Shown: one piece after another, positions 4,575 through 53,832 of the stretch
Numbering within the stretch: the first letter of the stretch is position 1
How the letters are laid out: the number at the start of each line of letters is the position of its first letter
Source: Candidatus Aminicenantes bacterium
GTDB taxonomy: Bacteria; Acidobacteriota; Aminicenantia; S016-38
NCBI GenBank assembly: GCA_026991555.1
Contig: JALXBI010000044.1
Span: 1,223-65,222 of the forward strand
Reading direction: 5' to 3'
DNA length: 64,000 bases
The notes under the pieces: model-generated
What the model saw: only the letters and a program-made list of their open reading frames with translations
The model's database searches: none
What the model was told of the DNA's origin: nothing
Translations under genes and position numbers: made by a program

Positions 4575-5053
4575 TGCAGGTACATACCCTGTTGTCCCCG
4601 GACCTCATCCTCCTCAACCTTAAAGCTACCACTGTGGAGGAAGTGCTAAGGGAAATCTCCAGGTTCATGGAGGAAAGGGGTGCGGTAAAAAACGGGAAAA
4701 AATTATTCCAGAGGCTCATGGCCCGGGAAAAATTGGGTAGCACTGCCCTGCCTGGAGGGATTGCTGTGCCTCACTGCAAAATGGAGGAACTGGAGTCTCC
4801 TGTCCTATCCCTCGCCATATCCCCTCAGGGGGTGGACTTCAACTCTCCTGATGGCAAACTCACTCACATATTCTTTACCGCCGTCTCCCCTATCTCCCCT
4901 CCTAATCTCCATCTTCAGGTCCTGGCTGCCATTGCGAAACTGGCCAGAAAAGGGAAAAAATCCCTGGTGGAAAAGCTTTTAAACGCCAAGACCCCGGAAA
5001 TGGCCTATGAAATTATCCGGGACGAGGAAATTCAGGAAGGCAATGAAGAATAG
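4574..5053 (+). CDS. ptsN: PTS IIA-like nitrogen-regulatory protein PtsN (EIIA-Ntr)
   Basis: EIIA fructose/Ntr family with the active-site His in the GIAVPHC context. 159 aa, in the rpoN operon. Confidence 0.8.
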   Translation: MQVHTLLSPDLILLNLKATTVEEVLREISRFMEERGAVKNGKKLFQRLMAREKLGSTALPGGIAVPHCKMEELESPVLSLAISPQGVDFNSPDGKLTHIFFTAVSPISPPNLHLQVLAAIAKLARKGKKSLVEKLLNAKTPEMAYEIIRDEEIQEGNEE

Positions 5054-5945
5054 CCTACCCCTGGCGAGATTTCTTAAAGAGAACTCCGATGTTCTTGATC
5101 TGATATACCCCGAAGCGCAGGACCTGCACGGAGAGATAACCTGTGGGGTGCTTCAGAGACCGGGCCTTATCCTGGCCGGGGTCAAGGAAACCTTCAAGCC
5201 CGGAGCTGTTCAGTTCTTCGGAGAAGAGGAAACTGCTTACCTTCGTTCCCTGGAAGAGCAGGCCCGAAGAGAAACCTTGCAACAGTATCTATCCCTGAGA
5301 CCCGTAGCCGTCATAATTCAGAGCGAATTTTTACTGAATTTAATAATTGAGCTTTTCAAAAAGAACTCGGTGCCCCTCTTTCGGTGTAGGGCCCAGAACT
5401 GTTATGAAAAAATAAATCAATATCTGCACTGGAAACTTTCCGAAAGAATAACCGTCCACGGGGAACTACTGGGCATATATGGACTGGGGGTTCTCATAAC
5501 AGGAGAAAGCGGCATAGGAAAAAGCGAAATAGCCCTTGAGCTCATAACCAGGGGCCACATGTTCGTTGCCGATGACCTGGTGGAGGTGCTGAGACTTCCC
5601 GGTGGAAACATTGTAGGTAAGGCCCCCGACAGAGCCCGGGGATTTATGGAGGTTAGGGGATTGGGAATAATAAGCGTAAACGACATTTTCGGGGGAGCCC
5701 TTTTGCCTTTCTCTCCCATAGATCTCATTCTGGAGCTGGTTCCCTATAAAAAGGAAATGGAAAGATTATCAGTAGAGGAAGAAAAGGAGAACCTTCTGGA
5801 GATGGAAATTCCCAAGTTCAAAATCCCTGTGGCTGCAGGGCGAAACATCGCCAATCTGGTGGAAGTAGCGGTGAGGCTGTTTATCCTGAAAACCTCAGGG
5901 GAAAAGCCCTTAGAAGAGTTTCTCAGAAGGATTCAAAAACCATGA
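5043..5945 (+). CDS. hprK: HPr kinase/phosphorylase
   Basis: P-loop GVLITGESGIGKSE and the HprK C-terminal domain signature (LVADD...EVRG). The ORF caller starts at 5007; the Met at 5043 reduces the overlap with ptsN to 11 nt. Confidence 0.8.
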   Translation: MKNSLPLARFLKENSDVLDLIYPEAQDLHGEITCGVLQRPGLILAGVKETFKPGAVQFFGEEETAYLRSLEEQARRETLQQYLSLRPVAVIIQSEFLLNLIIELFKKNSVPLFRCRAQNCYEKINQYLHWKLSERITVHGELLGIYGLGVLITGESGIGKSEIALELITRGHMFVADDLVEVLRLPGGNIVGKAPDRARGFMEVRGLGIISVNDIFGGALLPFSPIDLILELVPYKKEMERLSVEEEKENLLEMEIPKFKIPVAAGRNIANLVEVAVRLFILKTSGEKPLEEFLRRIQKP

Positions 5946-6799
5946 AACCCTACGTGGTAATAATAACCGGAATGAGCGGTTCCGGGAAAACCACCTATCT
6001 CAAAGCCTTAGAGGATGCTGGATTTTACTCCATGGACAATATGCCCATAGAGATGATTCCCAGGATAATTTCTCATATCTCCAGGAACAACCCAGAGATT
6101 CAGAGATTCGCCCTGGTGGTGGATGTTCGGGAGGAAGGTTTTCAGAAAAAATTTTCCTGGCTTATTGATAAACTCTCAGGATCCAGCAGGTTGCATGTGG
6201 TATTTCTGGATTGCAGGGACGAGGAGCTTACCAGAAGATTCAAGATCATGAGGAGAAAACACCCCTTAGAGGATGGAAGAAGTCTGGAAGAGGCCCTCAG
6301 GGAGGAGAGGGTTCTGCTGGAAGAGGTAAGGGAAAGGGCTGAGACGGTGATAAACACCACTGGAATCACTCCCGGAATGTTAAGGAAAATGGCCGTGGAG
6401 TTACACCTGAAGGGAAGGGGAAAAAGGATTATACTCATGAGCTTCGGTTTTTCCGCAGGCATTCCCCAGGAGGCTGACTTCGTTTTTGACCTCCGGGCCC
6501 TTCCCAACCCTTACTGGGACGAGAGATTAAGGCCGCTCACAGGAAAAGACCAAGAGGTAAGGGATTTTCTCCTGGCTCAGAAAGAGGTTAATTCTTATCT
6601 TTCCTCCCTTAAAACTTTCCTTAGCGCCACTGTCCCCATAATGTTTGAGGACGGTAGATTCCAGCTGGTGATTGCCTTAGGCTGCACCGGTGGACGGCAT
6701 AGATCGGTATTTTTTGTGGAAGAACTGTATAATTGGTTTATAGATGAGTGGGAGGATTACGAACTGGAAAAAAAGCACCGGGAGATAGAGGGAAAATGA
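5942..6799 (+). CDS. rapZ: RNase adapter protein RapZ (YvcJ/YhbJ P-loop NTPase)
   Basis: N-terminal Walker A GMSGSGKTT, 285 aa, and conserved placement after ptsN/hprK. Confidence 0.8.
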   Translation: MKPYVVIITGMSGSGKTTYLKALEDAGFYSMDNMPIEMIPRIISHISRNNPEIQRFALVVDVREEGFQKKFSWLIDKLSGSSRLHVVFLDCRDEELTRRFKIMRRKHPLEDGRSLEEALREERVLLEEVRERAETVINTTGITPGMLRKMAVELHLKGRGKRIILMSFGFSAGIPQEADFVFDLRALPNPYWDERLRPLTGKDQEVRDFLLAQKEVNSYLSSLKTFLSATVPIMFEDGRFQLVIALGCTGGRHRSVFFVEELYNWFIDEWEDYELEKKHREIEGK

Positions 6800-7200
6800 T
6801 AGGAGGGGTAATCATTACTCACGGGGAACTGGGAGCCACCTTGCTTCAGGTGGCGGAGAAAATTATGGGGAAGAGGCTTTCCCTGCCCGTAATTTCCATT
6901 GACTGGAAGGACGGGGTAAGCCAGATCGGCAAAAAAGAGCAGGAGATTAAAGCGGCTATAGAAAGGGAAAATCGCGGGAAAGGCGTGGTGGTATTTACGG
7001 ACATCTTCGGGGGAACCCCTACCAATCTCTGCGTTTCCTTGCTCAAATCCATGGATGTGGAAATAATAACCGGGATAAACCTTCCCCTTCTCCTGAAGTT
7101 CCTTTCTGAAAGGGATAAAATGGCCTTTAGGGAATTAACCATGGCCCTGGTAAAAAGGGGAAGGGAATCCATAGGTCGGATAAGGGATTTTCTGGAATAA
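6796..7200 (+). CDS. PTS mannose/fructose-family EIIA component
   Basis: An MIGGVIITHGELGATLL start with the phosphorylatable His in the ITHG context, about 134 aa. An ATGA overlap with the rapZ stop supports the internal start at 6796; the ORF caller gives 6748. Confidence 0.7.
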   Translation: MIGGVIITHGELGATLLQVAEKIMGKRLSLPVISIDWKDGVSQIGKKEQEIKAAIERENRGKGVVVFTDIFGGTPTNLCVSLLKSMDVEIITGINLPLLLKFLSERDKMAFRELTMALVKRGRESIGRIRDFLE

Positions 7201-7469
7201 TGGTGGAGAAGGAAACAGTTCTCGTTAACAAGCTCGGCATGCATGCCAGAGCCGCCACCAAACTGGTCCAGCTGGCCCAAAAATTCAAAAGCAAAATAGT
7301 TGTCATAGTAAACGGGATGGAGGCTGATGCCAAATCCATTCTGGGACTTTTAATACTCGCGGCCCCTGTAGGAACAAAAATAAAAATTCGGGCGGAGGGG
7401 GAAGATGAAAAGGAGGCGGTAGAAGCTATTGTAAAACTGATTGAAAACAGGTTCGGGGAGGAAGAATGA
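7200..7469 (+). CDS. ptsH: Phosphocarrier protein HPr
   Basis: An 89-aa protein with GMHARAATKLV (His15 context) and a seryl-phosphorylation site region (KSILGLL). Confidence 0.8.
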   Translation: MVEKETVLVNKLGMHARAATKLVQLAQKFKSKIVVIVNGMEADAKSILGLLILAAPVGTKIKIRAEGEDEKEAVEAIVKLIENRFGEEE

Positions 7470-9244
7470 AGGTTCTGAAGGGGCAGGCAGTGGTGGGCGG
7501 CATAGGAATAGGAAAGGCCCGATTCCTGAGAAGGGGCAAGAGGTTGTCACCGCCGAAAATCATAAAGGGAGAAGAGGCGGAACAGATAATTCGCTTAGAA
7601 AGAGCCATAGAGAAGACCAGAAAAGAGCTGGAGGAGTTAAAAGCCCACATAGAAGAAACCTTAGGTAAGGAGCATGCCCTTATCCTTGATGCCCAGCTTC
7701 TCATTCTTCAGGACAAAAAACTCCTGGACGAACTTACTGAGCGGATTATCAAGAATCTTGACAGTGCCGAGCGGGCCATAAAAAACCTCATAGAGAAATA
7801 TCACGGCATATTCTCCCAGGTAGAGGATTATCATATAAGAGAAAAAGTTCACGATATAGAAGACATACTGAGAAGAATAGAGAAAAACCTGGGAGAGGAG
7901 GCTAAGGAAGAAAGCTGGGAAGGTTCGGTGGTAGTGGCGAAAAATATTTTTCCTTCCGAAACGGCCCACATAATTTCCAGAGGAAAACCTGAAGCTTTTG
8001 TCCTGGAGTTTGGGGGAGAGACATACCATGCGGTTATTCTGGCCAGGGCCTACGGAATACCCACCGTGGTTGGGATTGAAAATGTGGAAACGGAAATAAG
8101 GGAAGGTGAAGAGGTGGTGGTCAACGGCGATGAAGGAATTGTAATCGTCTCCCCCTCCAGGTTCCAGATATCCAATTATGTTGAGCTCAAAAAGAGCCTG
8201 CAGGAGGAAAGGGCCAGGCTAAAGGAACTCCTCCTTGAACCCAATGAGACCTTAGATGGGGAAAAATTTTCCCTTTTCGTTAACATTGAATTCCCCGCGG
8301 AGGCCGAACTTATTTCTCCGGAAGCCGTCGAGGGAATAGGTTTGTTCAGAAGCGAGTATCTGCTTCTGCTTAGCCAGAGGGTTCCTCCAGAAGAGGAGCA
8401 ATACCAAATCTACTCGCAGCTTTCGGAAAAATTCAAATGGGTAATAATAAGGCTTTTTGATCTGGGTGCTGAGAAGAAAATAGCTGACCTGCCCTTTCAC
8501 GAAGAGGAAAACCCGGCCATGGGGGAAAGGGGTATAAGATACCTGTTCTCCCACAGGGACCTGCTCTATCCTCAGGTAAGGGCCATCCTCAGGGCTTCAG
8601 CCCAAAGGAAAAACATAAAACTAATGGCTCCCATGGTAACCAATATAAAGGAAATAAAAAAGCTTCTTATGGTGGTGGAGGATGCTAAGGGACAGCTAAG
8701 GATGGAAAAAAAGCCCTTCCATGAAAACCTTCCTGTAGGAGTAATGGTTGAAGTTCCATCCTTAGCGCTGATGGCGGACAGGGTAAGCAAAATAGTGGAC
8801 TTCCTCAGCATAGGAACCAATGACCTTTCCCAGTATATATTCGCCGCAGACAGGGCTAACGAAAGGGTTTCCCTACTGTGCAATCCCCTGGACCCGGCCT
8901 TCCTGAAACTCCTGCGCTTCACCATAAAAAAAGCCCAGGATCAGGGGAAGGAAATAGCCGTTTGCGGAGAAATGGCCTCCAGGCCTCTCCATGCCCTTTC
9001 CCTGCTCGGCATAGGCTTGAGGGAATTCTCAGTGTCTCCGGCCATGCTCCCTGTAATTAAGAGGGTCCTATCCTCGGTAGAAGTCCAGGTCATCAGGAAA
9101 AAGATAAACTCAGCCCTCAGACTTTCGGACGGCCAGGAGCTGGAGGAATACCTTAGAGGGGAATTGGAAAAAATATATCCTGAGATTTACCGATGGATAA
9201 GGAGGATATGCCATGAAAAAAACAGAAAAACCCTGGGGATATGA
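7466..9244 (+). CDS. ptsI: Phosphoenolpyruvate-protein phosphotransferase (Enzyme I)
   Basis: A 592-aa protein with a PEP-utilizing phosphohistidine domain (GGETYHAVILARAYGIPTVVG) and a C-terminal PEP-binding TIM barrel (SIGTNDLSQY). Confidence 0.9.
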   Translation: MKVLKGQAVVGGIGIGKARFLRRGKRLSPPKIIKGEEAEQIIRLERAIEKTRKELEELKAHIEETLGKEHALILDAQLLILQDKKLLDELTERIIKNLDSAERAIKNLIEKYHGIFSQVEDYHIREKVHDIEDILRRIEKNLGEEAKEESWEGSVVVAKNIFPSETAHIISRGKPEAFVLEFGGETYHAVILARAYGIPTVVGIENVETEIREGEEVVVNGDEGIVIVSPSRFQISNYVELKKSLQEERARLKELLLEPNETLDGEKFSLFVNIEFPAEAELISPEAVEGIGLFRSEYLLLLSQRVPPEEEQYQIYSQLSEKFKWVIIRLFDLGAEKKIADLPFHEEENPAMGERGIRYLFSHRDLLYPQVRAILRASAQRKNIKLMAPMVTNIKEIKKLLMVVEDAKGQLRMEKKPFHENLPVGVMVEVPSLALMADRVSKIVDFLSIGTNDLSQYIFAADRANERVSLLCNPLDPAFLKLLRFTIKKAQDQGKEIAVCGEMASRPLHALSLLGIGLREFSVSPAMLPVIKRVLSSVEVQVIRKKINSALRLSDGQELEEYLRGELEKIYPEIYRWIRRICHEKNRKTLGI

Positions 9245-9554
9245 GCTTCTCTTTGCCTTAACCCCATACTATGCAGGGAAGGTTCTGTTCATAAAAAAAG
9301 GCCATCGCCTCTCCCTTCAGTATCACAGAGAAAAGGATGAGAGCTTCCTGCTTTGGAAAGGAAAAATGCTCTTCATTTACGAGGAAAATGGTGAAATGAA
9401 GGAAAAAATAATGGAGCCCCTGGATAGTTTCCATATCCCCCCGGGCATGAAACACCGGATGGCGGCCATAGAGGACTGCTATGTTTTTGAAGTTTCCACC
9501 CCCCATCTGGATGATGTGGTAAGGTTAGAGGACGATTACGGAAGGGAAGATTGA
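9213..9554 (+). CDS. Small cupin-domain protein
   Basis: A 113-aa ORF with a two-His cupin-like motif (SLQYHREKDESFLL ... PPGMKHR). It overlaps the ptsI 3' end by 32 nt. Confidence 0.4.
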   Translation: MKKTEKPWGYELLFALTPYYAGKVLFIKKGHRLSLQYHREKDESFLLWKGKMLFIYEENGEMKEKIMEPLDSFHIPPGMKHRMAAIEDCYVFEVSTPHLDDVVRLEDDYGRED

Positions 9555-9586
9555 CCTTTTCCTGAGTTTCACTTAGAATTAAGTGA
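9551..9586 (+). promoter_or_regulatory. Sigma-70-type promoter (TTGACC -17 nt- TAGAAT) with a 7-4-7 inverted repeat (TCACTTA gaat TAAGTGA) overlapping the -10, upstream of citrate synthase
   Basis: Read directly: -35 TTGACC at 9551-9556, a 17-nt spacer, and -10 TAGAAT at 9574-9579. The palindrome spans 9569-9586, and an AGGAGG RBS precedes the ATG at 9614. Confidence 0.4.
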
Positions 9587-9613
9587 GAACTTAATAAAAG
9601 AAGGAGGAGTAAA

Positions 9614-10762
9614 ATGGCTTTTTTAACAGGGGAAGTGACCTATTCAAGAGGACTTGAGGGAGTAGTTGCGGCCATCACTTCCATAGCCGCTATAGATGGG
9701 GAAGAGGGAAAATTAATTTACCGAGGAATTCCCATTGAACTTTTAGCGGAAAAATCCAATTTTGAAGAAACCGCCTACCTTCTCTGGTTTGGAGACCTTC
9801 CCAAAAAAGACGAACTGGAAAACCTGAAGAGGGATCTGGTGGAACACAGGGAAATTCCCCAATTCCTGGTAGATTGTCTTAAGGGAGCTCCCAAGGATAC
9901 CCATCCCATGGAAATCCTAAGGACCTGCGTTTCCATGCTTGGTTGCTTTGACCCTGACAAGAACGACAACTCCCGGGGAGCCAACATCAGAAAGTCCATA
10001 AGGCTTACCGCCCAGATGCCCACTATAGTCGCCTATTACAGCAGGCTCAGAAGGGGATTGGAGCTTGTCCACCCGGATCCCAAACTTTCCCACGCCCAGA
10101 ACCTTTATTATATGCTTACCGGGGAGGTCCCCAACGAGGAAATTTCAAAGCTCATGGATGTAATCCTCATCCTCCACATGGAACACGGAATGAACGCCTC
10201 AACCTTCGCTGCCATGGTAGTGGCTTCCACCCTTTCCGACATGCATTCCTCCATCTGCGCTGCCATAGGAGCCCTTAGGGGCCCACTTCATGGGGGAGCC
10301 AACGAAAGGGTTCTGGAAATGCTCCAGGAGATAGGCACAGTGGAGAATGTGGAGCCCTATATTCTTAATGCCCTCAAGGAACACCGCAGAATCATGGGAT
10401 TCGGCCACAGGGTTTACAAAGCATACGACCCCAGAGCCAGAATTTTAAAGGAATACGCGGAAAGGTTGTCCAGAGAAAAGGGAGATACTAAATGGATAGA
10501 GATCGCAGAAAAGATAGAGGAAGTGATGATAAGGGAAAAGGGAAAGAAGGGAATCTTCCCCAATGTGGATTTCTATTCGGGAATAATTTACAACCTCCTC
10601 GGATTTCCCAAGGAAGTATTCACCCCAATATTTGCCATAGCCAGGGTGGTGGGCTGGACCGCCCATGTCCTTGAATATCTCCAGGCTAACAGAATATTCA
10701 GGCCCAGGGCCATTTACAATGGTCCCCTGGATGTGGAATACATACCCATTGATAAGAGGTGA
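9614..10762 (+). CDS. Citrate synthase (small, 382-aa type)
   Basis: Citrate synthase family motifs GFGHRVYK and LHGGANE plus the catalytic His/Asp region. A (2-methyl)citrate synthase cannot be excluded from sequence alone. Confidence 0.85.
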   Translation: MAFLTGEVTYSRGLEGVVAAITSIAAIDGEEGKLIYRGIPIELLAEKSNFEETAYLLWFGDLPKKDELENLKRDLVEHREIPQFLVDCLKGAPKDTHPMEILRTCVSMLGCFDPDKNDNSRGANIRKSIRLTAQMPTIVAYYSRLRRGLELVHPDPKLSHAQNLYYMLTGEVPNEEISKLMDVILILHMEHGMNASTFAAMVVASTLSDMHSSICAAIGALRGPLHGGANERVLEMLQEIGTVENVEPYILNALKEHRRIMGFGHRVYKAYDPRARILKEYAERLSREKGDTKWIEIAEKIEEVMIREKGKKGIFPNVDFYSGIIYNLLGFPKEVFTPIFAIARVVGWTAHVLEYLQANRIFRPRAIYNGPLDVEYIPIDKR

Positions 10763-10765
10763 ATC

Positions 10766-12019
10766 ATGGGAAAAACCTTAGCAGAAAAGATACTCTCGGA
10801 ACATGTGGGCCGGGATGTAAGACCCGGCGAGTTAGTAGTTGTGCCGGTGGATGTGGCTTTAGTTCAGGATGGAACCGGGCCCCTTACAGTCCAGGGCTTT
10901 GACAAAATGGGCTTCAAGGAAGTTAAGGTTCCCAAGGCAATTCTTTTCATTGACCATGCGGCCCCATCTCCCAGGAAGGAGCTATCCAACGCCCACAATA
11001 TCCTGAGGGAATTCGCCAAAAGAACCTCAGCTATAGTATCGGATGTGGGAGAAGGAATAAGCCACCAGATAATAGCGGAAAAATATATAAAGCCCGGGGA
11101 TGTGCTTACCGGAGCCGATTCCCACACCTGCACCGCTGGAGCCTTGGGAGCCTTCGCCACGGGAATGGGCTCCACAGACATCGCCTTAGCCTTTGGCTTG
11201 GGAAAGGTCTGGATGAAGGTTCCCGAAACCTACCGCTTTATCCTGAAGGGCAAGCTTCCGGAAGGGGTCTATTCCAAGGACATAATTCTCCACATAATAG
11301 GGACTATAGGAGCTGATGGTGCCACCTACAAAGCCATGGAATTCCAGGGCGAGGTAATAGAGGAGCTTTCCCAGGAGGCACGCCTTACCATATCCAACAT
11401 GGCAGTGGAGGCGGGAGCCAAGGTGGGGCTAATGCCCACAGACGAAAAGACCAAGGAATTTCTGGCATCCCATGGAAGGGAGAAGGACTACAGGGAAATT
11501 AAACCCGACCCCGACGCCGTCTACGAAAAGACCTTCGAAATAGATGTATCCAAACTGGAACCAGTGGTTTCCTTTCCCCACACAGTGGATAACACTAAGA
11601 GCATAAGCGAGGCCAAGGGAATTAAAATCAACCAGGTATTCATCGGCACCTGCACCAATGGAAGGATAGAAGACCTGAGGATAGCCGCCTCTATTCTAAA
11701 GGGAAGGGAAAAGCATCCCGATGTCAGGTTAATAGTAATTCCTGCCTCCAGAAATGTGTTCTTAAAGGCCCTGAGGGAAGGGCTCATTGACATTTTCGTC
11801 CAGGCCGGAGCCGCGGTCCTTGCTCCGGGATGCGGTCCCTGTGTGGGCGTTCACGAGGGGGTTCTCGGCGACGGGGAGAGGGTCCTTTCTACCCAGAACA
11901 GGAACTTCCGGGGAAGAATGGGTAATCCCAATGCGGAAATATTCCTTGCCTCCCCAGCCACCGCCGCTGCCTCGGCCATAACCGGGGAAATCACCGACCC
12001 AAGAGATTACCTGCAATAA
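10766..12019 (+). CDS. Aconitase-family hydro-lyase large subunit, LeuC/homoaconitase (archaeal small-type), 417 aa
   Basis: Aconitase-family Fe-S cluster cysteines ([18 protein letters not shown]) and a substrate-binding SR region, at the LeuC/HACN large-subunit length. Confidence 0.8.
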
Positions 12020-12029
12020 GGAGGAAGAA

Positions 12030-12530
12030 ATGATTATAAAGGGAAGAGTATGGAAGTTTGGTGATGATATATCCACCGACCACATCGCCCCTGGAAGGTA
12101 TTTCCATTTAAGGACCAACCTGCCCGAGCTGGCAAAACATGTCCTTGAGGATGCCAGGGAAGACTTCGCCTCAAAGGTTCAGCCCGGGGACATAATAGTG
12201 GCCGGGAGAAATTTCGGGTTGGGCTCTTCCAGGGAACACGCCCCGAGAATCATAAAGCTCGCCGGGGTTGGATGCGTAATTGCCAAAAGCTTCGCCAGGA
12301 TTTTCTACAGGAATTCTATAAATGTGGGTCTGCCCTTGGTGGAGATAAAACAAACCGACGAGATAGACGAGGGGGACATCCTTGAGGTGGACCTGAGGAA
12401 GGGAATAGTGAAAAACATAACCAAGGGAAAGGAATACAAATTCGTTCCCATGCCGGAATTCATGCTCAAAATAATAGAGGAAGGGGGGATAGAGGAATAC
12501 ATAAAGAAATACGGAGATTACCAGCTTTAA
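12030..12530 (+). CDS. Aconitase-family hydro-lyase small subunit (LeuD/HACN small subunit), 166 aa
   Basis: LeuD-like swivel domain ([27 protein letters not shown]), directly after the large subunit. Confidence 0.8.
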
Positions 12531-12540
12531 AGGAGGAGAG

Positions 12541-13749
12541 ATGGCAGAAAAAATAAGGGTGGAGAACGGGAAAATTATAGTTCCCGACGAGCCCATAATT
12601 CCTTTTATAGAAGGCGATGGCATAGGCCCGGACATAATGTCCGCCTCCATGGTGGTCTGGAACGCAGCGGTGGAGTTCGCCTACGGTGGAAGGAGGAAAG
12701 TTCACTGGAAGGAAATATACGCCGGGGAAAAGGCGTATAAATTAAAGGGGGAACACCTTCCCAAGGAAACCATAGAGGCCATAAGGGAGCACATAATCGC
12801 CATAAAGGGACCGCTTACCACCCCGGTGGGAGGCGGTTACAGGAGCCTGAATGTTACCCTGAGGCAGGTCCTTGACCTTTATGCCTGCGTCAGGCCGGTG
12901 AGATGGATCAGGGGCGTTCCCTCTCCGGTAAGAAGGCCGGAGCTTCTTGATGTGGTAATCTTCAGGGAAAACACCGAGGATGTTTATGCGGGAATAGAAT
13001 GGCCCAAGGGAAGCGCGGAGGCAAAGAAGGTCATTCAGTTTCTCAGGGAGGAATTAGGGGTCAAGATAAGGGAAGATTCGGGAATAGGGATAAAGCCCAT
13101 TTCAGAATTCGCCACCAAGAGGTTGGTGCGTAAGGCTATTCAGTATGCTTTAGAAAACGGCAGGAAAAGCGTTACCTTAGTTCACAAGGGAAACATAATG
13201 AAATACACCGAAGGGGCCTTTAAAGAATGGGGCTACGAGGTTGCCAAGGAAGAATTCTCAGACAGGGTTATTCCCGAGTCCGAAATTCAGGGAGAGGTTC
13301 CCGAAGGAAAAATAATCATCAAGGATAGGATAGCCGACAACATGTTCCAGCAGATTTTAACAAGACCCGCCGAATACGATGTTATAGCCCTTCCCAACCT
13401 CAACGGTGATTATCTCTCCGACGCCGCTGCTGCCCAGGTTGGAGGGCTGGGAATGGCCCCAGGAGCCAATATAGGGGATTACATAGGACTTTTTGAGGCA
13501 ACCCACGGAACCGCTCCAAAATACGCTGGACTGGACAAGGTAAATCCCGGTTCTCTCCTCCTTTCCGGTGCCATGATGTTCAGGTATATGGGCTGGTGGG
13601 AAGTGGCGGATCTTATAGAAAGGGGAATGGAAGCTACCATAATGGATAAAAAGGTGACCTACGACTTAGCAAGGCACATGGAGGGGGTTGAACCCATAAA
13701 AACCTCAGAATTTGCCAGGGAAATTGTAAAGAGAATGGAGAATCTATAG
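12541..13749 (+). CDS. icd: NADP-dependent isocitrate dehydrogenase (E. coli Icd type)
   Basis: A 402-aa protein with the [10 protein letters not shown] substrate-binding motif, the NLNGDYLSD metal site, and the phosphorylation-loop region characteristic of Icd. Confidence 0.85.
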
Positions 13750-13757
13750 GAGGGAAA

Positions 13758-14492
13758 ATGAAGTGCCCTAATTGCGGCAAGGAGGTTTCGGAGGAATTCA
13801 GGTTTTGCCCCCATTGCGGTTACCCCCTTAAGGAAGAGGAGGCGGAATATTACGAGAGAATGGCCAGGAAACTCCGGGCCATGGGCAAATTAAAGGACGC
13901 CGCGGCCTACTGCGAAAAGGCAGCCAAACTTAAACCCAACGAATACTCCCACAAGAACTTGGGGGAAATTTACTACCTCATGGGCTCCCTTCACAAATCC
14001 ATGTATCACCTTCGCAGGGCCATTGACATGAGACCGGACTTTACCGATGCCCATTATGCCTTGGGAATCACCTATTACAGGGCCGGGATGATTGACGAGG
14101 CCATAAGGGAGCTGGAAAAGACCCTTGAGCTAAACCAGGAATTCCTAATGGCCCATTACTGGCTTGGTGTTGCTTATTATCACATGGGAGAGCTGGAAAA
14201 ATCCATAGACCAGTTCAGGAAACTTCTGGAGAAAAACCCCGAATCTGCCATAGCCAACTATCAGCTGGGAATATCCCTTTCCGCCTTGGGTAAATACGAG
14301 GAGGCCATAAAACATTTTGAGAAAATGGCAAAAATAGAGCCCAATCACGCCAGCCTTTTCTATCACTTAGGAAACGCCTATTATCAGGTCCATGACCTGG
14401 AAAAGGCCAAGAAAGCTCTAAAAAAGGCCATTGATCTCAATCCCAGGGATGAACGGGCGAAGAAGCTCTATGCCCTTTTGACAGAAGGATAA
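13758..14492 (+). CDS. TPR-repeat protein with an N-terminal zinc ribbon
   Basis: CPNCG...CPHCG at the N-terminus, followed by about five TPR repeats (AHYALGITYYRAG, AHYWLGVAYYHMG and others). Confidence 0.6.
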   Translation: MKCPNCGKEVSEEFRFCPHCGYPLKEEEAEYYERMARKLRAMGKLKDAAAYCEKAAKLKPNEYSHKNLGEIYYLMGSLHKSMYHLRRAIDMRPDFTDAHYALGITYYRAGMIDEAIRELEKTLELNQEFLMAHYWLGVAYYHMGELEKSIDQFRKLLEKNPESAIANYQLGISLSALGKYEEAIKHFEKMAKIEPNHASLFYHLGNAYYQVHDLEKAKKALKKAIDLNPRDERAKKLYALLTEG

Positions 14493-15979
14493 TGAGCGGC
14501 AATCTCGCCCAGGCAATTCTTTCTTCCCCTGTCCCTGATAAAGAAATCGCCATATTCTTCGAGGGAAGGGGCATAACCTACGGAGAGCTTAAAAAAAGGA
14601 TAAGGAAACTTGGGGCTTCCCTGAAAAGGGCCGGGGTGAAGGAAGGGGTCCATGTGGCCGTAGTTTTCCCCAATTTTCCGGACTTCATCTACGCCTACTT
14701 CGCCATCCTCGCTGCCGGGGGAGTGGTGGTTCCGGTAAACCCCATATTCAAGCCATACGAGATGAACTACATACTCACCCATTCCGATGCCAGGATGGTT
14801 CTTTGCTCCAATTTTTTTGAAGCCACGGTCAAGGAAGCTCTCCCCCAAGGAGTTCTTGTCGCAGACGACTTAGTCCTTTCCCAGTGGATGGATGGGGAAG
14901 AGGAAATTTCCCCGGCAGAAAAGCAAACCCATGACCTTGCGGTAATAATGTATACCTCCGGAACCACCGGAAGACCCAAGGGGGCAATGCTCTCCCACGG
15001 AAACCTGCTGGCTGACTCAGAGGCAGTAATAGAAGGACTTAAGCTGGAAAGGGAAGATGTCATGCTCACAGTTCTACCCCTCTTCCATTCCTTCGGAGCC
15101 ATGGTGGGAATGATTTCCCCCCTGAGGAAGGGGGCAAAGACGGCCCTGCTCACCAAATTTACCCCCGACGGTATAATAAAAGCCATAAAACAATACGGGG
15201 TGACCATTTTTCCTGCGGTTCCCTCCATGTTCGCTTTACTTAACCGGGTAAAGGATCTCTCCCGCCAGGACATACCTTCCCTGAAATATTGCATAAGCGG
15301 AGGGGCTCCCCTCCCCTTGGAGGTTATGGAGGAATTCGAAAGGAAATTCGGAGTTCCCATCTATGAGGGGGACGGTCCCACAGAATGCAGTCCGGTAACC
15401 AGTGTGAACCCCATAGGAGGGAAGAGGAAACCAGGCTCCATAGGGCTTCCCGTGAAAAACGTGAATATGGAGATTGCTGACGAAGAGGGAAATTTCCTTC
15501 CTCCGGGAGAGATAGGTGAAATCGTGGTAAAGGGCCCCAATGTTTTTCTGGGTTATTACAAGGACCCGGAGGCTACTGCGGAAGCCTTTTTCGGCCAATG
15601 GTTCAGGACAGGGGACTTGGGGAAAAAGGACGAGGAGGGTTATTTTTACATAATAGACAGAAAAAAGGACATGATCATAGTGGACGGACTCAACGTTTAT
15701 CCCAGGGAAATAGAGGAACTCCTTTATAAACTTCCGGAAATAGCGGAAGCCGCTGTGGTGGGAAAACCCCATCCTCTCCACGGGGAGATCCCTGTAGCCT
15801 TCATCGCTCTGAAGGAAGGGGCCAGCTGGAATGAGGATAGGGTCAAGGAATACCTCAGGAAACACTTAGCCGGATACAAAATACCTAAGAAATTCTATAT
15901 TCTGGAAAGCCTCCCCAAGACGCCTACCGGAAAAATCTCCAAGGTGGCCCTCAGGAGGAAGCTTGAAGATCATCTTTGA
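14492..15979 (+). CDS. Long-chain/medium-chain fatty-acid--CoA ligase (ANL adenylating superfamily)
   Basis: AMP-binding motif YTSGTTGRPKG, then GYGPTE-like motifs, and the C-terminal PKTPTGKISK lysine. Confidence 0.8.
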   Translation: MSGNLAQAILSSPVPDKEIAIFFEGRGITYGELKKRIRKLGASLKRAGVKEGVHVAVVFPNFPDFIYAYFAILAAGGVVVPVNPIFKPYEMNYILTHSDARMVLCSNFFEATVKEALPQGVLVADDLVLSQWMDGEEEISPAEKQTHDLAVIMYTSGTTGRPKGAMLSHGNLLADSEAVIEGLKLEREDVMLTVLPLFHSFGAMVGMISPLRKGAKTALLTKFTPDGIIKAIKQYGVTIFPAVPSMFALLNRVKDLSRQDIPSLKYCISGGAPLPLEVMEEFERKFGVPIYEGDGPTECSPVTSVNPIGGKRKPGSIGLPVKNVNMEIADEEGNFLPPGEIGEIVVKGPNVFLGYYKDPEATAEAFFGQWFRTGDLGKKDEEGYFYIIDRKKDMIIVDGLNVYPREIEELLYKLPEIAEAAVVGKPHPLHGEIPVAFIALKEGASWNEDRVKEYLRKHLAGYKIPKKFYILESLPKTPTGKISKVALRRKLEDHL

Positions 15980-16160
15980 TGGAAGAGAAGTGGAAATTCC
16001 TGAAAGAAAAATTCGGGTGAAGGAGCTTCTTAAAAAACTGGGAGCAGACGAGCTTTACTTTTTAGTAGTTGACCTTGAGAGGGGAAAACTTCTTACCAAC
16101 GACCGGGTGGTAAAGGAGGGGGACAGGATAGAGATTCGTTCCACCCTCTCCTGGGGATAA
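15963..16160 (+). CDS. ThiS/MoaD-like small beta-grasp protein (65 aa) with an atypical -SWG C-terminus
   Basis: The MKIIFDGREVEI...VVKEGDRIEIRSTLSWG pattern matches the ThiS/MoaD layout but ends WG, not GG. It has a TTG start and overlaps the acyl-CoA ligase 3' end. Confidence 0.35.
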   Translation: MKIIFDGREVEIPERKIRVKELLKKLGADELYFLVVDLERGKLLTNDRVVKEGDRIEIRSTLSWG

Positions 16161-17585
16161 TTACCTTAAAACCAAAGGGGTAGGAATCTTGTTTAAAAGA
16201 ACCTCCCCGTTTTTCTTTCCCCAACCTATGGGGTATCCCCTGTGGTAAACAGGGATGTATTCCAGGGCAGAGTCAGGGGAAGGGAGGTTCTCCCCTGAAG
16301 CGAATCTAAGCGCCGCCTCTTCGTCCAGCTCTAAGGCCGCGTTGCGAAAAAGGTGAGGAAAGGCCATGAGAAGGGCATGGGTGGGACGCATTTTTCCTCC
16401 GGAGTAAACTCTCACTGCCTTTACCCCCACCCTGTTAAAAACGGCCCTTGAGAAAAGGGGAGAGAAGTCCTGGGAATGATACCAGATGTGATCCCCGGAA
16501 AGGAAAAACCTGCCCTCCCGGAAAAACTCCCCCGCTCCATAGGGTTCAAAGAACTTCACCAAGGCATCCCTGGTTCCCCTATCGATCTCCCTTCCAAGAA
16601 CCCTTCCCTCGGGCACCCTTCCCCTCCTTACTGAAGCAGGCAGGGTTTCCCGCAGCTTCTTTAATTTGAAAATGGTGAAGGCTTCGGTGTCATTAAGGAA
16701 GGGCCATATCCTGGCTATCTTACTTACCTCAGGGTGAAATCTCTGCCCTTCAAATTCCCTTACCCCCTCCATGGTCTTAAGCCCTGGAAGTTTCACCTCC
16801 TCCACCTCCACTGCGCCAGGGAAAGCCTCTAAGGCATGGGTTAGGATAGCTTCGTTTTCCTCCGGGGTCATGGTGCATGTGGAGTAAACAAGCACCCCTC
16901 CCGGTCTGAGGGAATGGATGGCGGAAACTATGAGGGATTTTTGAACATTCTGGGCCCTTCTTATGTATGAAAGGTTCCAGTATTTTTTAAAAAAACTCTC
17001 GTCCTTTCGGGTGCTTCCCTCCGCTGAACACGGGGCATCCAGCAGAACCCTGTGGAAAAAATTGGGAAACCTCCAGCCGAAGGTATTTCCCCTTAAAATA
17101 CTAACCGCGGAATTTACCACCCCCATCCTCTCCAAGTTCCCCACCAGAACCTTTGCCCGATAAAGAAGGGGCTCGTTGACCACAAGGATTCCCTTTCCCT
17201 CCATGAGGGCCGCCAAATGGGTGGATTTCCCTCCGGGGGCAGCGGCCATGTCCAGAACTAACTCCCCAGGCTCAGGGGCCAGAAGCTCAGGCGGGGCCAT
17301 GGATGAAGCATCCTGGATGTAATAAAGGCCCATCATGTGAAAAACCAGTTTTCCCGGAGAGATTTCTCCCTCCACCCAGAACCCCGAAGGACACCAGGGA
17401 ACGGGTTTTAATTCATATCCCCGCTCACGAAGAAGGGCACTGAGTTTTGACGGGGAAATTTTTAGGGTATTGGTCCTGAGGGCTCTTCGCAGGGGAAGAA
17501 ATACGAATTTTACAAGTTCCTGAAGGAGCCCTTCTCCCAGAATCTCCCTGTATCGGGAAAGAAAATCCCGGGGAATCTCACCCAT
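16161..17585 (-). CDS. rsmF: 16S rRNA m5C methyltransferase, RsmF/RsmB (Fmu/Sun) family, with a C-terminal extension
   Basis: SAM-binding motif LDMAAAPGGKSTHL and the catalytic DAPCS and TCT motifs, about 475 aa. The start is moved to the Met at 17585 to avoid a 98-nt overlap with the upstream gene. Confidence 0.7.
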   Translation of the reverse strand: MGEIPRDFLSRYREILGEGLLQELVKFVFLPLRRALRTNTLKISPSKLSALLRERGYELKPVPWCPSGFWVEGEISPGKLVFHMMGLYYIQDASSMAPPELLAPEPGELVLDMAAAPGGKSTHLAALMEGKGILVVNEPLLYRAKVLVGNLERMGVVNSAVSILRGNTFGWRFPNFFHRVLLDAPCSAEGSTRKDESFFKKYWNLSYIRRAQNVQKSLIVSAIHSLRPGGVLVYSTCTMTPEENEAILTHALEAFPGAVEVEEVKLPGLKTMEGVREFEGQRFHPEVSKIARIWPFLNDTEAFTIFKLKKLRETLPASVRRGRVPEGRVLGREIDRGTRDALVKFFEPYGAGEFFREGRFFLSGDHIWYHSQDFSPLFSRAVFNRVGVKAVRVYSGGKMRPTHALLMAFPHLFRNAALELDEEAALRFASGENLPSPDSALEYIPVYHRGYPIGWGKKNGEVLLNKIPTPLVLR

Positions 17586-18885: not shown

Positions 18886-18959
18886 GCTGAAATTATATAT
18901 GTTTTCCCCTCCTTTCCAAACTCCCATGAAATTGCTAAAATTATTTTCCTGGGTTGGGC

Positions 18960-19130
18960 AAAGGGAAGGTGGTGAAAAGCCACCGCTGCCCCCGCAGCTG
19001 TAACCGGGGACGAAACCCACAAAGGGCCACTGTCCTTACCCGAAAATTCGGGAGGATGGGAAGGCGTGGGGAGTAGGATGATCCGGGAGCCAGAAGACCT
19101 ACCAGCCCAGGCCTTCAGCTCCATCTTCGG
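18960..19130 (+). promoter_or_regulatory. Cobalamin (AdoCbl) riboswitch in the btuB leader
   Basis: All hallmark blocks are present in order: AAGGGAAGGUGGUGAAAAGCCACC, GCUGCCCCCGCAGCUGUAA, GGGCCACUG, GGGAAGGCG and the B12 box GAGCCAGAAGACCUACC. A GC hairpin (GGAGGGG...CCCCUCC) follows, then an AAAGGAGG RBS before the btuB ATG at 19186. Confidence 0.85.
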
Positions 19131-49536: not shown

Positions 49537-50372
49537 GAAAATTAGTTTACGGAATAAGGATTTTCCTGAGAGACCTTTCGTCCAGTCCGGAAAACCTCCT
49601 CCTGCCCCTCCTGGTCCTTTCCCTTTCCATGTTTGTGCTTTACTGGTTCCTCTTCCTGAGACAGGGAATGGAGAGGGGAATTGAGAGGTTATCCAGGGGT
49701 CTCTACGCCAGGATTTTCCTTGAAAGGGGAACAGAACCTGAAAAATTCATCTCCTTACTTCAAAAAAGGGCAAAAATTGAAAAATGGCGCCTGATAAATC
49801 CCGATGAGGCTTTCCGGGAATTTTCGCATCTATATCCCAAACTTGCCAGAATCCTCGGAAATGAAAATCCCTTTCCACCTAATATAGAGGTAGTCTTCTC
49901 CCCGGGTCAGAGCCCGAAAATTATTAGAGGGGCCCTGAAGGAAATTCAGGCCCTTCCTGGGGTGGAGGATGTGGTATTCCAGTGGGAAGCGGTGGAGAAA
50001 TTAAGAAAGGCCAGGAAAAGATTTGAGGAGGTGGGGGAATTCCTGACCGCCCTTCTTGTTCTGGCCTCTGCCCTTATAATAGCCAACTTAGTGGCCGTAG
50101 GGGTGGCCTCCCATAGCGAGGAAATCGCCCTCATGGAACTTCTGGGAGCAAGCCGAAGTTTCTCTTCCCTTCCCTTCGTTCTTATGGGAAGTTTGCTTTC
50201 CCTGATGGGAGCCCTTTTGGGGCTTTTGCTATTCCTGCTCTCCCGTTCTCTTCTAAGCTCTTTCCTCCCCCCCTTCTTCGGACAATTATCCCCTCTTTAC
50301 ATGGGAGGATTAATCCTGGGAAGTTTTTTGGTAGGACTTCTGGCCTCTCTGATAGCAATAAAAAGGCCTTAA
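49533..50372 (+). CDS. ftsX: Cell-division permease-like protein FtsX
   Basis: One N-terminal TM helix, a periplasmic domain and three C-terminal TM helices; 279 aa, coupled to ftsE. Confidence 0.75.
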   Translation: MRKLVYGIRIFLRDLSSSPENLLLPLLVLSLSMFVLYWFLFLRQGMERGIERLSRGLYARIFLERGTEPEKFISLLQKRAKIEKWRLINPDEAFREFSHLYPKLARILGNENPFPPNIEVVFSPGQSPKIIRGALKEIQALPGVEDVVFQWEAVEKLRKARKRFEEVGEFLTALLVLASALIIANLVAVGVASHSEEIALMELLGASRSFSSLPFVLMGSLLSLMGALLGLLLFLLSRSLLSSFLPPFFGQLSPLYMGGLILGSFLVGLLASLIAIKRP

Positions 50373-50869
50373 GGGAGCCCCAGTTTTTTTCTCGTATAGG
50401 GAATCAGGCCCCCTGCCTGGAGGATTTCTCTGACCTTCTCGGGAAATGGGGGAAAGGAAAAGACCCCTGCCGGGGTTTTCACTTCGCCCCTTTCAAGGTC
50501 TATTTCCACCTGGTCTCCTTCCTTTACAGCTTCAACCGCTTCGGGAAGCTCAATGGCTGGAAGCCCGGCGTTAATGCAGTTCCTATAGTAAATCCTGGCA
50601 AAGGACTTGGCCACTATAGCGGAAATTCCAGCATATTTTAGTGCCAGCACTGCCTGTTCCCTGGAGGAGCCCATACCGAAATTCTTACCGGCGAAAATTA
50701 TGTCCCCGGGCTGAACTTTGTTTTTAAATTCCGGATCCAGGTCCTCCATGGCATGGGAGGCCATTTCCTCAGGACTTAGATTTTTGTAGGTGTATCTTCC
50801 GGGAAAAATTACATCGGTATTGATATCATCCCCGTATTTGATGACCTTACCCTTAAGCTTCATTTTCAC
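50369..50869 (-). CDS. LeuD-family (aconitase swivel) small subunit, orphan paralog
   Basis: GDDINTDVIFPGRY and GKNFGMGSSREQA motifs, paralogous to 12030..12530. No adjacent large subunit. Confidence 0.75.
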   Translation of the reverse strand: MKMKLKGKVIKYGDDINTDVIFPGRYTYKNLSPEEMASHAMEDLDPEFKNKVQPGDIIFAGKNFGMGSSREQAVLALKYAGISAIVAKSFARIYYRNCINAGLPAIELPEAVEAVKEGDQVEIDLERGEVKTPAGVFSFPPFPEKVREILQAGGLIPYTRKKLGLP

Positions 50870-53815: not shown

Positions 53816-53832
53816 GGTATAATTTTACACCA

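Follow-up and report, generated by a model that had tools for sequence, protein, structure and literature searches.

Described two-subunit hydro-lyases of the aconitase superfamily

The highest-scoring solved relative of the hydro-lyase pair described here is the isopropylmalate isomerase (IPMI)/citramalate isomerase of Methanocaldococcus jannaschii, MJ0499/MJ1277 (PDB 4KP1, 4NQY and 3VBA; 428 and 190 bits, respectively), which has the same two-subunit architecture, belongs to the same fold family and shares the Cys ligands, the catalytic residues and the GSSRE motif. The two systems differ in that the substrate-recognition loop of MJ1277 (YLVYT) contains no Arg and is one residue shorter, that in MJ0499 the catalytic Glu is followed by Met and the Cys motif reads PSCSACMG, where the large subunit (LSU) studied here has Ala216 and PGCGPCVG, and that our pair has no leucine or isoleucine genes in its genomic context. 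The homoaconitase (HACN) of methanogens, MJ1003/MJ1271 (PDB 4KP2 and 2PKP), likewise consists of two subunits, acts on tricarboxylates and carries a GCGPC motif in the LSU. The Arg-Thr pair in the loop of its small subunit (SSU) reportedly sets specificity, a finding attributed to Jeyakanthan et al. in 2010. The role of the SSU loop in specificity has been confirmed (PMC7308503). Compared with that of MJ1271 (YLRTT), the loop described here (F-H-L-R-T-N) is longer by one residue and has an invariant His; the pair scores below the HACN equivalogs, and its neighbours are genes for citrate synthase and NADP-dependent isocitrate dehydrogenase (IDH), not those for homocitrate synthase and homoisocitrate dehydrogenase.

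The monomeric aconitases (mitochondrial aconitase [mAcn], AcnA/IRP and AcnB) catalyse the reaction that we propose for the pair, and their active-site residues in domains 1–3 are conserved in it, but the pair is made up of two polypeptides and has neither a linker nor extra domains. The nearest family named as an aconitase is the fused ‘putative aconitate hydratase’ (NCBIfam NF005558/PRK07229 and TIGR01342), a single polypeptide of ~650 aa. On the profile of this family, the LSU aligns over its whole length with the first 415 positions (416 bits) and the SSU with positions 476–600 (88 bits), and the pair remains under the cut-offs of 612 and 719.

In Dehalococcoides mccartyi, a LeuCD-type pair lies immediately before the biochemically verified IDH (DET0450/KB1_0495), as it does here, and is listed without locus tags as putative aconitase subunits (Fig. 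S2), while a full leuA-leuC-leuD-leuB operon is encoded separately (PMC4720418). The aconitase idea is not wholly new, as the Dehalococcoides orthologues already bear the name ‘putative aconitase’, at the level of annotation only (PMC4720418 supplement). In contrast to the locus described here, no citrate synthase gene adjoins the D. mccartyi pair, the Re-citrate synthase (Re-CS) being encoded elsewhere, and the IDH is shorter (360 aa). Two Dehalococcoidia/Chloroflexia loci (L074 and L075) share our loop type, in the forms AHLRSNL and APLRSNL, and their LSUs belong to our LSU clade.

Gene organization of the locus

The window, i.e. the whole 64-kb stretch of DNA that was analysed, contains four co-oriented genes at 9614–13749, all on the + strand and separated by intergenic gaps of 3, 10 and 10 nt. 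The features of this block and its surroundings are as follows.

9551..9579, + strand, sigma-70-like promoter candidate, TTGACC-17 nt-TAGAAT, matching at 10/12 positions
9614..10762, + strand, Si-type citrate synthase (Si-CS), 382 aa (TIGR01800, PF00285; GFGHRVYK at residue 262)
10766..12019, + strand, LeuC/HacA-type [4Fe-4S] hydro-lyase LSU, 417 aa, proposed aconitase LSU (TIGR02086, PF00330)
12030..12530, + strand, SSU, 166 aa, proposed aconitase SSU setting substrate specificity (TIGR02087, PF00694)
12541..13749, + strand, NADP-dependent IDH, 402 aa (TIGR00183; SLNVTLRQ at residue 102)
13758..14492, + strand, 244-aa protein with TPR repeats and, at its N terminus, a zinc-ribbon-like CxxC motif (generic TPR matches only)
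14492..15979, + strand, AMP-forming acyl-CoA ligase, 495 aa, ending the co-oriented run (NF004837, 481 bits versus a cut-off of 476)
50369..50869, − strand, second, orphan SSU of another clade, about 164–166 aa, outside the cluster (50% identical to the first SSU)

The original prediction had described a co-oriented block of citrate synthase, LeuCD-type pair and IDH, and an ORF check gave the genes, the GFGHRVYK and SLNVTLRQ motifs and the product sizes of 417 and 166 aa exactly as claimed. A GGAGG-type ribosome-binding site precedes each of the four genes. The sigma-70-like sequence lies in the 59-nt gap 5′ of the citrate synthase gene and is the top match within 9000–16400; since such matches in this interval are no more numerous than the shuffled expectation, it remains a mere promoter candidate.

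Family assignment and active-site residues

The citrate synthase scored 509 bits against TIGR01800 (cut-off, 421) and 490 bits against PF00285. TIGR01800 spans 2-methylcitrate synthase as well as citrate synthase II and was the sole synthase model passed, the narrower equivalogs being missed, so that the product of 9614..10762 may also be a 2-methylcitrate synthase. The IDH exceeded the cut-offs of TIGR00183 (679.8 versus 567.3 bits) and NF005425 (641 versus 490), whereas homoisocitrate dehydrogenase models gave 197–219 bits against cut-offs of 500–540.

The LSU matched TIGR02086 (IPMI_arch, 606 bits), the HacA_fam subfamily model (593 bits) and PF00330 (357 bits), and the SSU matched TIGR02087 (213 bits) and PF00694 (68 bits), in agreement with the earlier view, which assigned the pair to the archaeal LeuCD/HACN type and not to AcnA/AcnB. 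Membership of the AcnA, AcnB or mAcn families was rejected: there are two polypeptides, not one of ~750–900 aa, and the LSU reached just 95–201 bits with these models against cut-offs of 686–1287. Both subunits are also under every NCBIfam equivalog cut-off specific for IPMI (TIGR02083 LEU2, 504.6 < 610.65; TIGR02084 leud, 218.7 < 245.85; TIGR00170/00171, 264 < 560 for leuC and 53 < 116 for leuD) or HACN (NF040615 HacA_Meth, 498.8 < 550; NF040625/NF040604 HacB and NF010629 for the SSU, 205.7 < 230 [HacB2], 156.5 < 230 and 166.5 < 229).

When the 417-aa product was aligned to mAcn (1C96), Cys296, Cys356 and Cys359 corresponded to the [4Fe-4S] cluster ligands C358, C421 and C424, and the equivalents of mAcn Q72, D100, H101, H147, D165, S166, H167, N258, E262, N446, R447 and R452 were all retained. 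With these residues in the LSU and the carboxylate-binding motif GSSRE in the SSU (residues 65–69, inside segment 63–72), the pair is a [4Fe-4S] hydro-lyase of the aconitase superfamily. Ala216 of the LSU replaces a Met found in both IPMI and HACN, and PGCGPCVG is closer to the motif of MJ1003 than to that of MJ0499.

Substrate-recognition loop of the SSU

The loop of the SSU reads G22-R-Y-F-H-L-R28-T-N-L and is one residue longer than those of MJ1277, MJ1271 and PH 1v7l. An invariant Arg and the added residue set it apart from the IPMI-type loop, which has no basic residue for a γ-carboxylate. Leu-Arg-Thr, known from the HACN-type YLRT, occurs in it too, but an inserted residue displaces it and an invariant His stands before it. 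In a short local sequence alignment, the TDHI...R...L segment of the SSU aligns with mAcn residues 567–583, and Arg28 falls on mAcn Arg580 with equal G-x5-R-x-x-L spacing. The alignment score to this segment was 38 for the SSU, compared with 17–22 for the IPMI, HACN and orphan SSUs. The G-R-x-x-H-L-R signature is retained in 119 of the 120 closest SSU clusters and in 38 of 40 SSUs adjoining related LSUs in the genome loci fetched, and is limited to a small set among 150 SSU representatives at 50% identity. The majority of these representatives have YLN(T/S)xDP, which we read as the ordinary leucine-pathway type common in bacteria, and a few have an HACN-like YLRT.

Phylogeny and conservation of gene order

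A phylogenetic placement had been suggested together with the original prediction. In 99.5% of 200 bootstrap neighbour-joining trees, the 40 LSUs associated with the loop all lay on one side of a branch, with MJ0499, MJ1003 and the LSU partners of the other SSU clade on the other side. Bootstrap values for the exact clade were only moderate (59–69% for the Si-CS-linked clade). The clade is phylogenetically apart from characterised IPMI and HACN, yet inside the LeuCD/HACN branch. Of the homologues checked in databases, all that are named are called 3-isopropylmalate dehydratase, with the one exception of a 2,3-dimethylmalate dehydratase small subunit; the label ‘small subunit 1’ on the Thermotoga homologues implies that another pair exists there. 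We found no enzyme assay or other biochemical proof for any member of the clade in the literature.

The order Si-CS, LSU and SSU was found in at least 20 of 80 related genome loci from several phyla and both prokaryotic domains, and because it recurs so widely the clustering is not due to chance. Usually followed by NADP-IDH, this order occurs in Aminicenantes (L007–L012), Hydrothermota and WOR-3 (L013–L016), Thermotogaceae, including Marinitoga-like ones (L019 and L027), and Neomarinimicrobiota (L041). Archaeal clusters were found in the DHVE2/Aciduliprofundum group (L017–L026 apart from L021, and L093) and, with a divergently oriented citrate synthase gene, in Njordarchaeota (L060). The cultured Kosmotoga olearia has the cluster as Kole_1230 to Kole_1227, and the Thermotoga cluster runs on into proA-proB, the genes leading from glutamate to proline.

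Other loci of this LSU clade are linked with citrate synthases of other kinds. In 11 loci from Syntrophorhabdaceae, Deltaproteobacteria and Methanosarcinales-like organisms (the available sequence including the SSU in seven), the product of the gene directly 5′ of the LSU resembles SYN_02536, a characterised Re-CS of the Syntrophus type (54–58% identity over 404–599 aa). In three loci, two of them from Actinomycetota (L033 and L035) and the third being L045, the upstream product is 51–61% identical to HM1_2993, a confirmed Re-CS of the Heliomicrobium type, and just 35–42% identical to NifV and LeuA of the same organism as HM1_2993. Every Re-CS locus whose sequence extends far enough has an IDH-family gene after the SSU, and one lies near the pair in most Si-CS and Re-CS loci with enough sequence. 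Three unrelated or non-orthologous types of citrate synthase thus flank one clade of hydro-lyases, and the conserved operon link to citrate synthase and IDH that is looked for in an aconitate hydratase is present. The same loop was also found with no nearby TCA gene in three thaumarchaeal loci (L058, L076 and L079) and in L054; should these genomes lack any further LeuCD, the loop would be compatible with isopropylmalate as a substrate. Two loci (L081 and L086) have an HM1_2993-like gene beside an LSU lying outside the clade.

The orphan SSU

Searches of the 64-kb window by tblastn with LeuA-family, Iso_dh-family and LeuC probes gave no LeuA-family gene, no second Iso_dh-family dehydrogenase and no second LSU. 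The earlier statements that leuA, leuB and homocitrate synthase are absent and that the LeuD-like gene at 50369..50869 has no partner LSU hold throughout the window. Leucine genes beside the orphan SSU, together with a canonical acnA/acnB elsewhere, had been named as a finding that would speak against the prediction; no leu gene adjoins the orphan, whose neighbours encode FtsX and a radical-SAM protein. The loop of the orphan is GRYTYKNLSPEE, with no His-Leu-Arg. Orphan-type SSUs stand alone in close relatives too, including one that is 81% identical and has a different neighbourhood, and distant relatives occur in LSU-SSU-dehydrogenase (AksF2/LEU3_arch-like) or LSU-SSU-PrpD-family clusters.

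Proposed function and alternative explanations

We consider it likely that the pair at 10766–12530 is a heterodimeric [4Fe-4S] aconitase that converts citrate to isocitrate via cis-aconitate. This is the step to which the original prediction had assigned it, and the assignment is supported computationally by synteny, the Re-CS links, the Arg-containing loop and phylogeny. The scores under the IPMI and HACN cut-offs, the precedent in D. mccartyi and the likely 2-oxoglutarate:ferredoxin oxidoreductase encoded in the window also speak for it. Points against it are that the solved relatives closest in overall sequence are an IPMI and an HACN, the loop-sharing loci with no TCA gene nearby, the moderate exact-clade bootstrap values and the two loci L081 and L086. 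Aconitase activity would have arisen within the LeuCD/HACN branch of the superfamily, with the LSU carrying the [4Fe-4S] cluster and catalytic residues and the SSU providing GSSRE and a flexible substrate-recognition loop, in which Arg28 may bind the γ-carboxylate of citrate like Arg580 in mAcn. Citrate synthase, the pair and NADP-IDH would form a single transcription unit that turns oxaloacetate and acetyl-CoA into 2-oxoglutarate, the physiological direction that we infer, mainly to feed biosynthesis of the glutamate family in an anaerobic organism. If this is true, the leucine-pathway name used in databases most likely mislabels the aconitase of many anaerobic bacteria and archaea making 2-oxoglutarate.

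That the pair serves leucine or isoleucine synthesis as an ordinary isopropylmalate/citramalate isomerase, its position between gltA and icd having no functional meaning, is highly improbable. The top solved relatives, the names given by all naming sources but one and the four loci that share the loop with no TCA neighbours favour such an enzyme, but both subunits are under the LEU2 and leud cut-offs, the window contains neither leuA nor leuB, three kinds of citrate synthase and IDH recur beside the pair across phyla, and Arg is invariant at a loop position that is hydrophobic or small in IPMI. The complete separate leu operon of D. mccartyi and the second pair implied in Thermotoga argue in the same direction. 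A homoaconitase acting on homocitrate/cis-homoaconitate, in α-aminoadipate lysine synthesis or 2-oxoacid chain elongation, would explain the Leu-Arg-Thr that recalls YLRT of MJ1271, the MJ1003-like GCGPC region and the HacA_fam score. It is very unlikely given the scores under the HacA_Meth and HacB cut-offs, the longer loop with a His absent from HACN, an upstream gene for Si-CS and not for a LeuA-family homocitrate synthase, and a downstream gene that passes the NADP-IDH equivalog and falls far short of homoisocitrate dehydrogenase; the LeuA-family neighbours seen elsewhere match Re-CSs, not NifV.

The LSU may instead be shared, acting as an aconitase with the adjacent SSU and as IPMI, HACN or another hydro-lyase with the orphan SSU. 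Arabidopsis IPMI has one LSU and three function-defining SSUs, and SSU swaps between HACN and IPMI remain functional (PMC7308503, citing Jeyakanthan 2010 and Lombo 2004 for the swaps); the orphan has no LSU of its own within 64 kb and is also alone in its 81%-identical relative. We nevertheless regard sharing as unlikely, as orphan-type SSUs in more distant genomes adjoin their own LSU, of a different clade, and a second LSU may lie beyond the window, just as the LSU and SSU genes of M. jannaschii are unlinked, judging from the gene numbers MJ0499/MJ1277 and MJ1003/MJ1271. Scarcely credible is a methylcitrate-type pathway, in which the synthase makes 2-methylcitrate and the pair isomerises it. 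The breadth of TIGR01800 and a PrpD/MmgE-family gene adjoining one orphan-type SSU relative would fit, but the gene after the pair encodes an NADP-IDH at equivalog level and not a methylisocitrate lyase, the proA-proB continuation in Thermotoga points to glutamate, and the PrpD link belongs to the other SSU clade.

Genes downstream of the block

The TPR gene starts 8 nt after icd, has its own GGAGG-type ribosome-binding site and probably shares a transcript with the block. It is kept 3′ of the cluster in the Aminicenantes, Hydrothermota and WOR-3 loci. Its stop codon is overlapped by the start codon of the acyl-CoA ligase gene, whose product passes a long-chain-fatty-acid--CoA ligase subfamily model (NF004837) and which occupies the same position in Aminicenantes loci only. 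A likely 2-oxoglutarate:ferredoxin oxidoreductase is encoded 12 kb downstream of the cluster in the same window.

Organization of the citrate synthase-isocitrate dehydrogenase cluster

The original prediction placed a LeuC/LeuD-type hydro-lyase between a citrate synthase and an NADP-isocitrate dehydrogenase (IDH). The four co-oriented genes were found as described, with gaps of 3, 10, and 10 nt, and the motifs cited for the citrate synthase and the IDH were located in the corresponding ORFs.

Genes of the cluster
9614-10762, +, Si-type citrate synthase, 382 aa (TIGR01800, 509 bits; cut-off, 421; NCBIfam/Pfam)
10766-12019, +, LeuC/HacA-type large subunit, 417 aa (TIGR02086, 606 bits)
12030-12530, +, LeuD-type small subunit, 166 aa (TIGR02087, 213 bits)
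12541-13749, +, prokaryotic NADP-isocitrate dehydrogenase (icd), 402 aa (TIGR00183, 680 bits; cut-off, 567)

A GGAGG-type ribosome-binding site stands ahead of each of the four ORFs. The best sigma-70-like match of the region falls within the 59-nt gap 5' of the synthase gene, and the promoter and terminator scans yielded match numbers not above those of shuffled sequence. No leader or riboswitch was found at the cluster using Rfam. The co-oriented run extends to 15979 through genes for a TPR protein and then an acyl-CoA ligase. The TPR protein (13758-14492, +), encoded directly after icd, carries an N-terminal CxxC...CxxC zinc-ribbon-like motif, and a TPR gene follows icd also in Aminicenantes, Hydrothermota, and WOR-3 loci. 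Directly upstream of the cluster (2704-9244, +) lie rpoN-hpf-ptsN-hprK-rapZ-EIIA(Man)-HPr-Enzyme I, a nitrogen-PTS type of regulatory module whose placement is kept in Aminicenantes relatives. Proteins of the window are up to 96% identical to those of other MAGs labelled Candidatus Aminicenantes.

Catalytic residues and the small-subunit loop

As predicted, the pair is not of the AcnA/AcnB type: the AcnA, AcnB, and mitochondrial aconitase (mAcn) models gave 95-201 bits versus cut-offs of 686-1287. The nearest solved structures are the isopropylmalate isomerase (IPMI; MJ0499/MJ1277) and the homoaconitase (HACN; MJ1003/MJ1271) of M. jannaschii. Alignment of the large subunit to mAcn showed conservation of its three cluster cysteines and of every catalytic residue in domains 1-3, and the small subunit contains the GSSRE motif; the pair therefore looks catalytically competent.

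The small-subunit loop reportedly determines substrate preference (Jeyakanthan et al. 2010). For the LeuCD/HACN family, control of substrate preference by this loop, which follows the TD motif, is described in PMC7308503. The loop of the small subunit in the window (10 residues) is one residue longer than those of the IPMI MJ1277 (YLVYT), the HACN MJ1271 (YLRTT), and P. horikoshii 1V7L (YNLTKD). The sequence G-R-x-x-H-L-R occurs in 38 of the 40 small subunits adjoining related large subunits and in 119 of the 120 closest small-subunit clusters. Among 150 representatives (50% identity), it is limited to the best-scoring group and a small number of further members, and most representatives carry YLN(T/S)xDP.

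Arg580 of mAcn binds the gamma-carboxylate of the substrate. When the small subunit was locally aligned with residues 564-585 of pig mAcn (22 residues), a 17-residue segment was placed on 18 residues of mAcn with Arg28 on Arg580; this loop alignment scores 38, versus 17-22 for other small subunits. A single position of the large subunit proved clade-specific: residue 216, which follows the catalytic Glu. The His-Leu-Arg clade has Ala, Cys, or Ser there, whereas IPMI, HACN, and the large subunits that pair with the other small-subunit clade have Met.

Genomic context of related pairs

For 80 genome loci with a relative of the large subunit, the neighbouring genes were mapped. Si-citrate synthase, large subunit, and small subunit, usually followed by IDH, occur in this order in Aminicenantes, Hydrothermota, WOR-3, Thermotogaceae, and Neomarinimicrobiota and, among archaea, in the DHVE2/Aciduliprofundum group and Njordarchaeota. 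Cultured examples include Aciduliprofundum boonei T469 and Kosmotoga olearia (Kole_1230 to Kole_1227); a transcriptome paper on the latter treated the synthase and IDH as a route to 2-oxoglutarate and named no aconitase (PMC5674127). Complete genomes with the cluster include those of T. maritima, K. olearia (CP001634), Marinitoga piezophila, and A. boonei. In Thermotoga, the cluster leads directly into proA and proB, which ties it to glutamate-derived biosynthesis. In the DHVE2/Aciduliprofundum loci (L017-L026 and L093), a nearby Iso_dh gene lies on the opposite strand and is only 33% identical to the IDH of the window.

In other phyla, the gene upstream of the pair belongs to the LeuA family, and these genes were compared with the reference sequences in Table S1 of PMC12016533, in which HM1_2993 of Heliomicrobium is a confirmed Re-citrate synthase and the Syntrophus aciditrophicus enzyme is characterised. 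The upstream gene of 11 loci (Syntrophorhabdaceae, Deltaproteobacteria, and Methanosarcinales-like) shares 54-58% identity over 404-599 aa with the S. aciditrophicus Re-citrate synthase, against only 24-32% with LeuA or NifV; the upstream genes of two Actinomycetota loci (L033 and L035) and of L045 are 51-61% identical to HM1_2993. An IDH-family gene follows the pair in every Re-citrate synthase-type locus whose sequence reaches far enough, and in the loci scanned it matches the NADP-IDH models best. Thus, three kinds of citrate synthase together with IDH surround one hydro-lyase clade, a synteny with no easy explanation other than citrate-to-isocitrate conversion by that clade.

Two loci (L081 and L086) are at odds with this simple picture: an HM1_2993-like gene (53-55% identical) lies beside a large subunit of the E-M-G type, outside the His-Leu-Arg clade and without an adjacent small subunit. 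In three thaumarchaeal loci (L058, L076, and L079), no TCA gene neighbours the pair. Large subunits of the same broad clade with E-C-G at the catalytic Glu, also without an adjacent small subunit, were found mostly in Archaeoglobi, several loci being labelled only 'uncultured archaeon' (L048, L051-L053, L056-L057, L059, L064-L066, L068-L069, L071-L073, L077, and L082-L083). Aconitase was once reported missing from Archaeoglobus, and these proteins are candidates for it.

Phylogeny of the large subunit

In neighbour-joining (NJ) analysis, the branch splitting the loop-associated large subunits from MJ0499, MJ1003, and the partners of small subunits of the second type in the window (see below) was recovered in 99.5% of 200 bootstraps; this separation is the robust statement, exact-clade support for larger groupings being 45-69%. 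The Si-citrate synthase-linked set is recovered as a clade at 59-69% support. Within it nest the DHVE2 archaea, themselves a clade with 100% support, and the DHVE2/Aciduliprofundum sequences group with WOR-3/Hydrothermota (64%). This nesting of archaeal clusters in a bacterial clade suggests that the proposed citrate synthase-aconitase cassette has moved between the two domains.

Functional assignment of the pair

An aconitase is the best-supported explanation of the pair, and we consider this assignment quite probable. A plain IPMI, the function of one of the nearest solved structures, is unlikely: the pair stays below the IPMI equivalog cut-offs (LEU2, 505 < 611; leud, 219 < 246), and the predicted lack of a LeuA-family gene was borne out by tblastn of the window with LeuA-family, Iso_dh-family, and LeuC probes, in which no second dehydrogenase was detected either. 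HACN, the other structural neighbour, is likewise unlikely given that the methanogen homoaconitase cut-offs are not reached (499 < 550; 206 < 230) and that the flanking genes encode an Si-citrate synthase and an NADP-IDH. A role in the methylcitrate pathway is also unlikely in view of the downstream NADP-IDH and of the Thermotoga cluster leading into proA-proB. It is possible that the enzyme is shared or has broad specificity.

Beyond this pair, the balance tilts towards the LeuCD clade with the His-Leu-Arg loop being a distinct, heterodimeric aconitase class that originated inside the IPMI/homoaconitate branch, recognisable from sequence, apparently carried on a cassette that moved between bacteria and archaea, and constituting the 'missing aconitase' of many bacterial and archaeal anaerobes. 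Its signature would combine the G-R-x-x-H-L-R loop of the small subunit with a small amino acid next to the catalytic Glu, on its C-terminal side, in the large subunit, and its range would cover Thermotogae, Aminicenantes, WOR-3, Syntrophia, Dehalococcoidia, Methanosarcinales, DHVE2, and perhaps Archaeoglobi.

The missing-aconitase gap was once attributed to AcnX, which later proved to comprise other enzymes. In Dehalococcoides mccartyi, the IDH adjoining the equivalent pair was verified biochemically, the pair itself is given in the supplement as putative aconitase large and small subunits, and a complete, separate leu operon is present (PMC4720418). A 2021 survey of the aconitase superfamily included no heterodimeric class (PMC8184944). 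The relatives checked (NCBI, UniRef, and JGI), including that of Thermotoga maritima, are named 3-isopropylmalate dehydratase, with one exception named 2,3-dimethylmalate dehydratase. Within the incomplete coverage of the full-text literature, neither a biochemical characterisation or report of a two-subunit aconitase nor any mention of Thermotoga TM0290-0292 or Kole_1228/1229 was found. The proposal, a two-subunit aconitase that can be recognised by a signature of its own, had been anticipated only in annotation.

If the assignment is correct, the oxidative TCA branch has been wrongly called broken in reconstructions of many anaerobes and uncultured lineages, which would also count a nonexistent extra leucine/isoleucine enzyme; the loop and the small post-Glu residue would allow bulk correction of annotations. 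The aconitase superfamily would gain a heterodimeric class, and a clean example in which substrate specificity is reset when the loop of an exchangeable small subunit changes by one residue. We rate the significance as moderate rather than high, since the reaction itself is conventional and the same idea was put forward earlier for Dehalococcoides.

The orphan small subunit

One further small subunit, 50% identical to the first, was detected by tblastn of the whole window:

50369-50869, -, LeuD-type small subunit, between ftsX and a radical-SAM gene

In agreement with the original prediction, it has no large-subunit partner in the window, where LeuC probes detected no second large subunit. The loop of its clade, TDVIFPG[KR]YTYxxx, is variable precisely where that of the first clade is invariant. 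More distant relatives are encoded together with a large subunit and a dehydrogenase, the latter closest to the homoisocitrate or isopropylmalate types. This different loop, together with the relatives' own clusters, indicates that the orphan probably belongs to a different hydro-lyase. Its own large subunit may be encoded outside the window. It is also possible that one large subunit serves both small subunits, by analogy with Arabidopsis IPMI, in which one large subunit works with several small subunits (PMC7308503); close relatives of the orphan (L094 and L096) are likewise orphans, and one 81%-identical relative has a different gene neighbourhood.

In another locus (L089, 6736-10007), a divergent MmgE/PrpD-family gene (117 bits; PrpD cut-off, 950) comes after the genes for a large subunit and an orphan-type small subunit. 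Since this family includes cis-aconitate decarboxylases, the three products may work in another tricarboxylate route.

Other features of the window

18938-19120, +, cobalamin riboswitch (RF00174, 112.6 bits)
26125-28645, +, three-subunit 2-oxoacid:ferredoxin oxidoreductase (beta subunit, 382 bits; 2-oxoglutarate-specific equivalog cut-off, 364)
53832-53906, +, tRNA-Thr (CGT)

The oxidoreductase, 12 kb from icd, is probably specific for 2-oxoglutarate and would catalyse the next TCA-related step. The riboswitch lies directly 5' of genes for a TonB-dependent receptor (19186-21006), an ABC ATPase, a periplasmic binding protein, and a FecCD permease, and the whole looks like a B12-regulated uptake operon. 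The tRNA gene is the sole one in the window.
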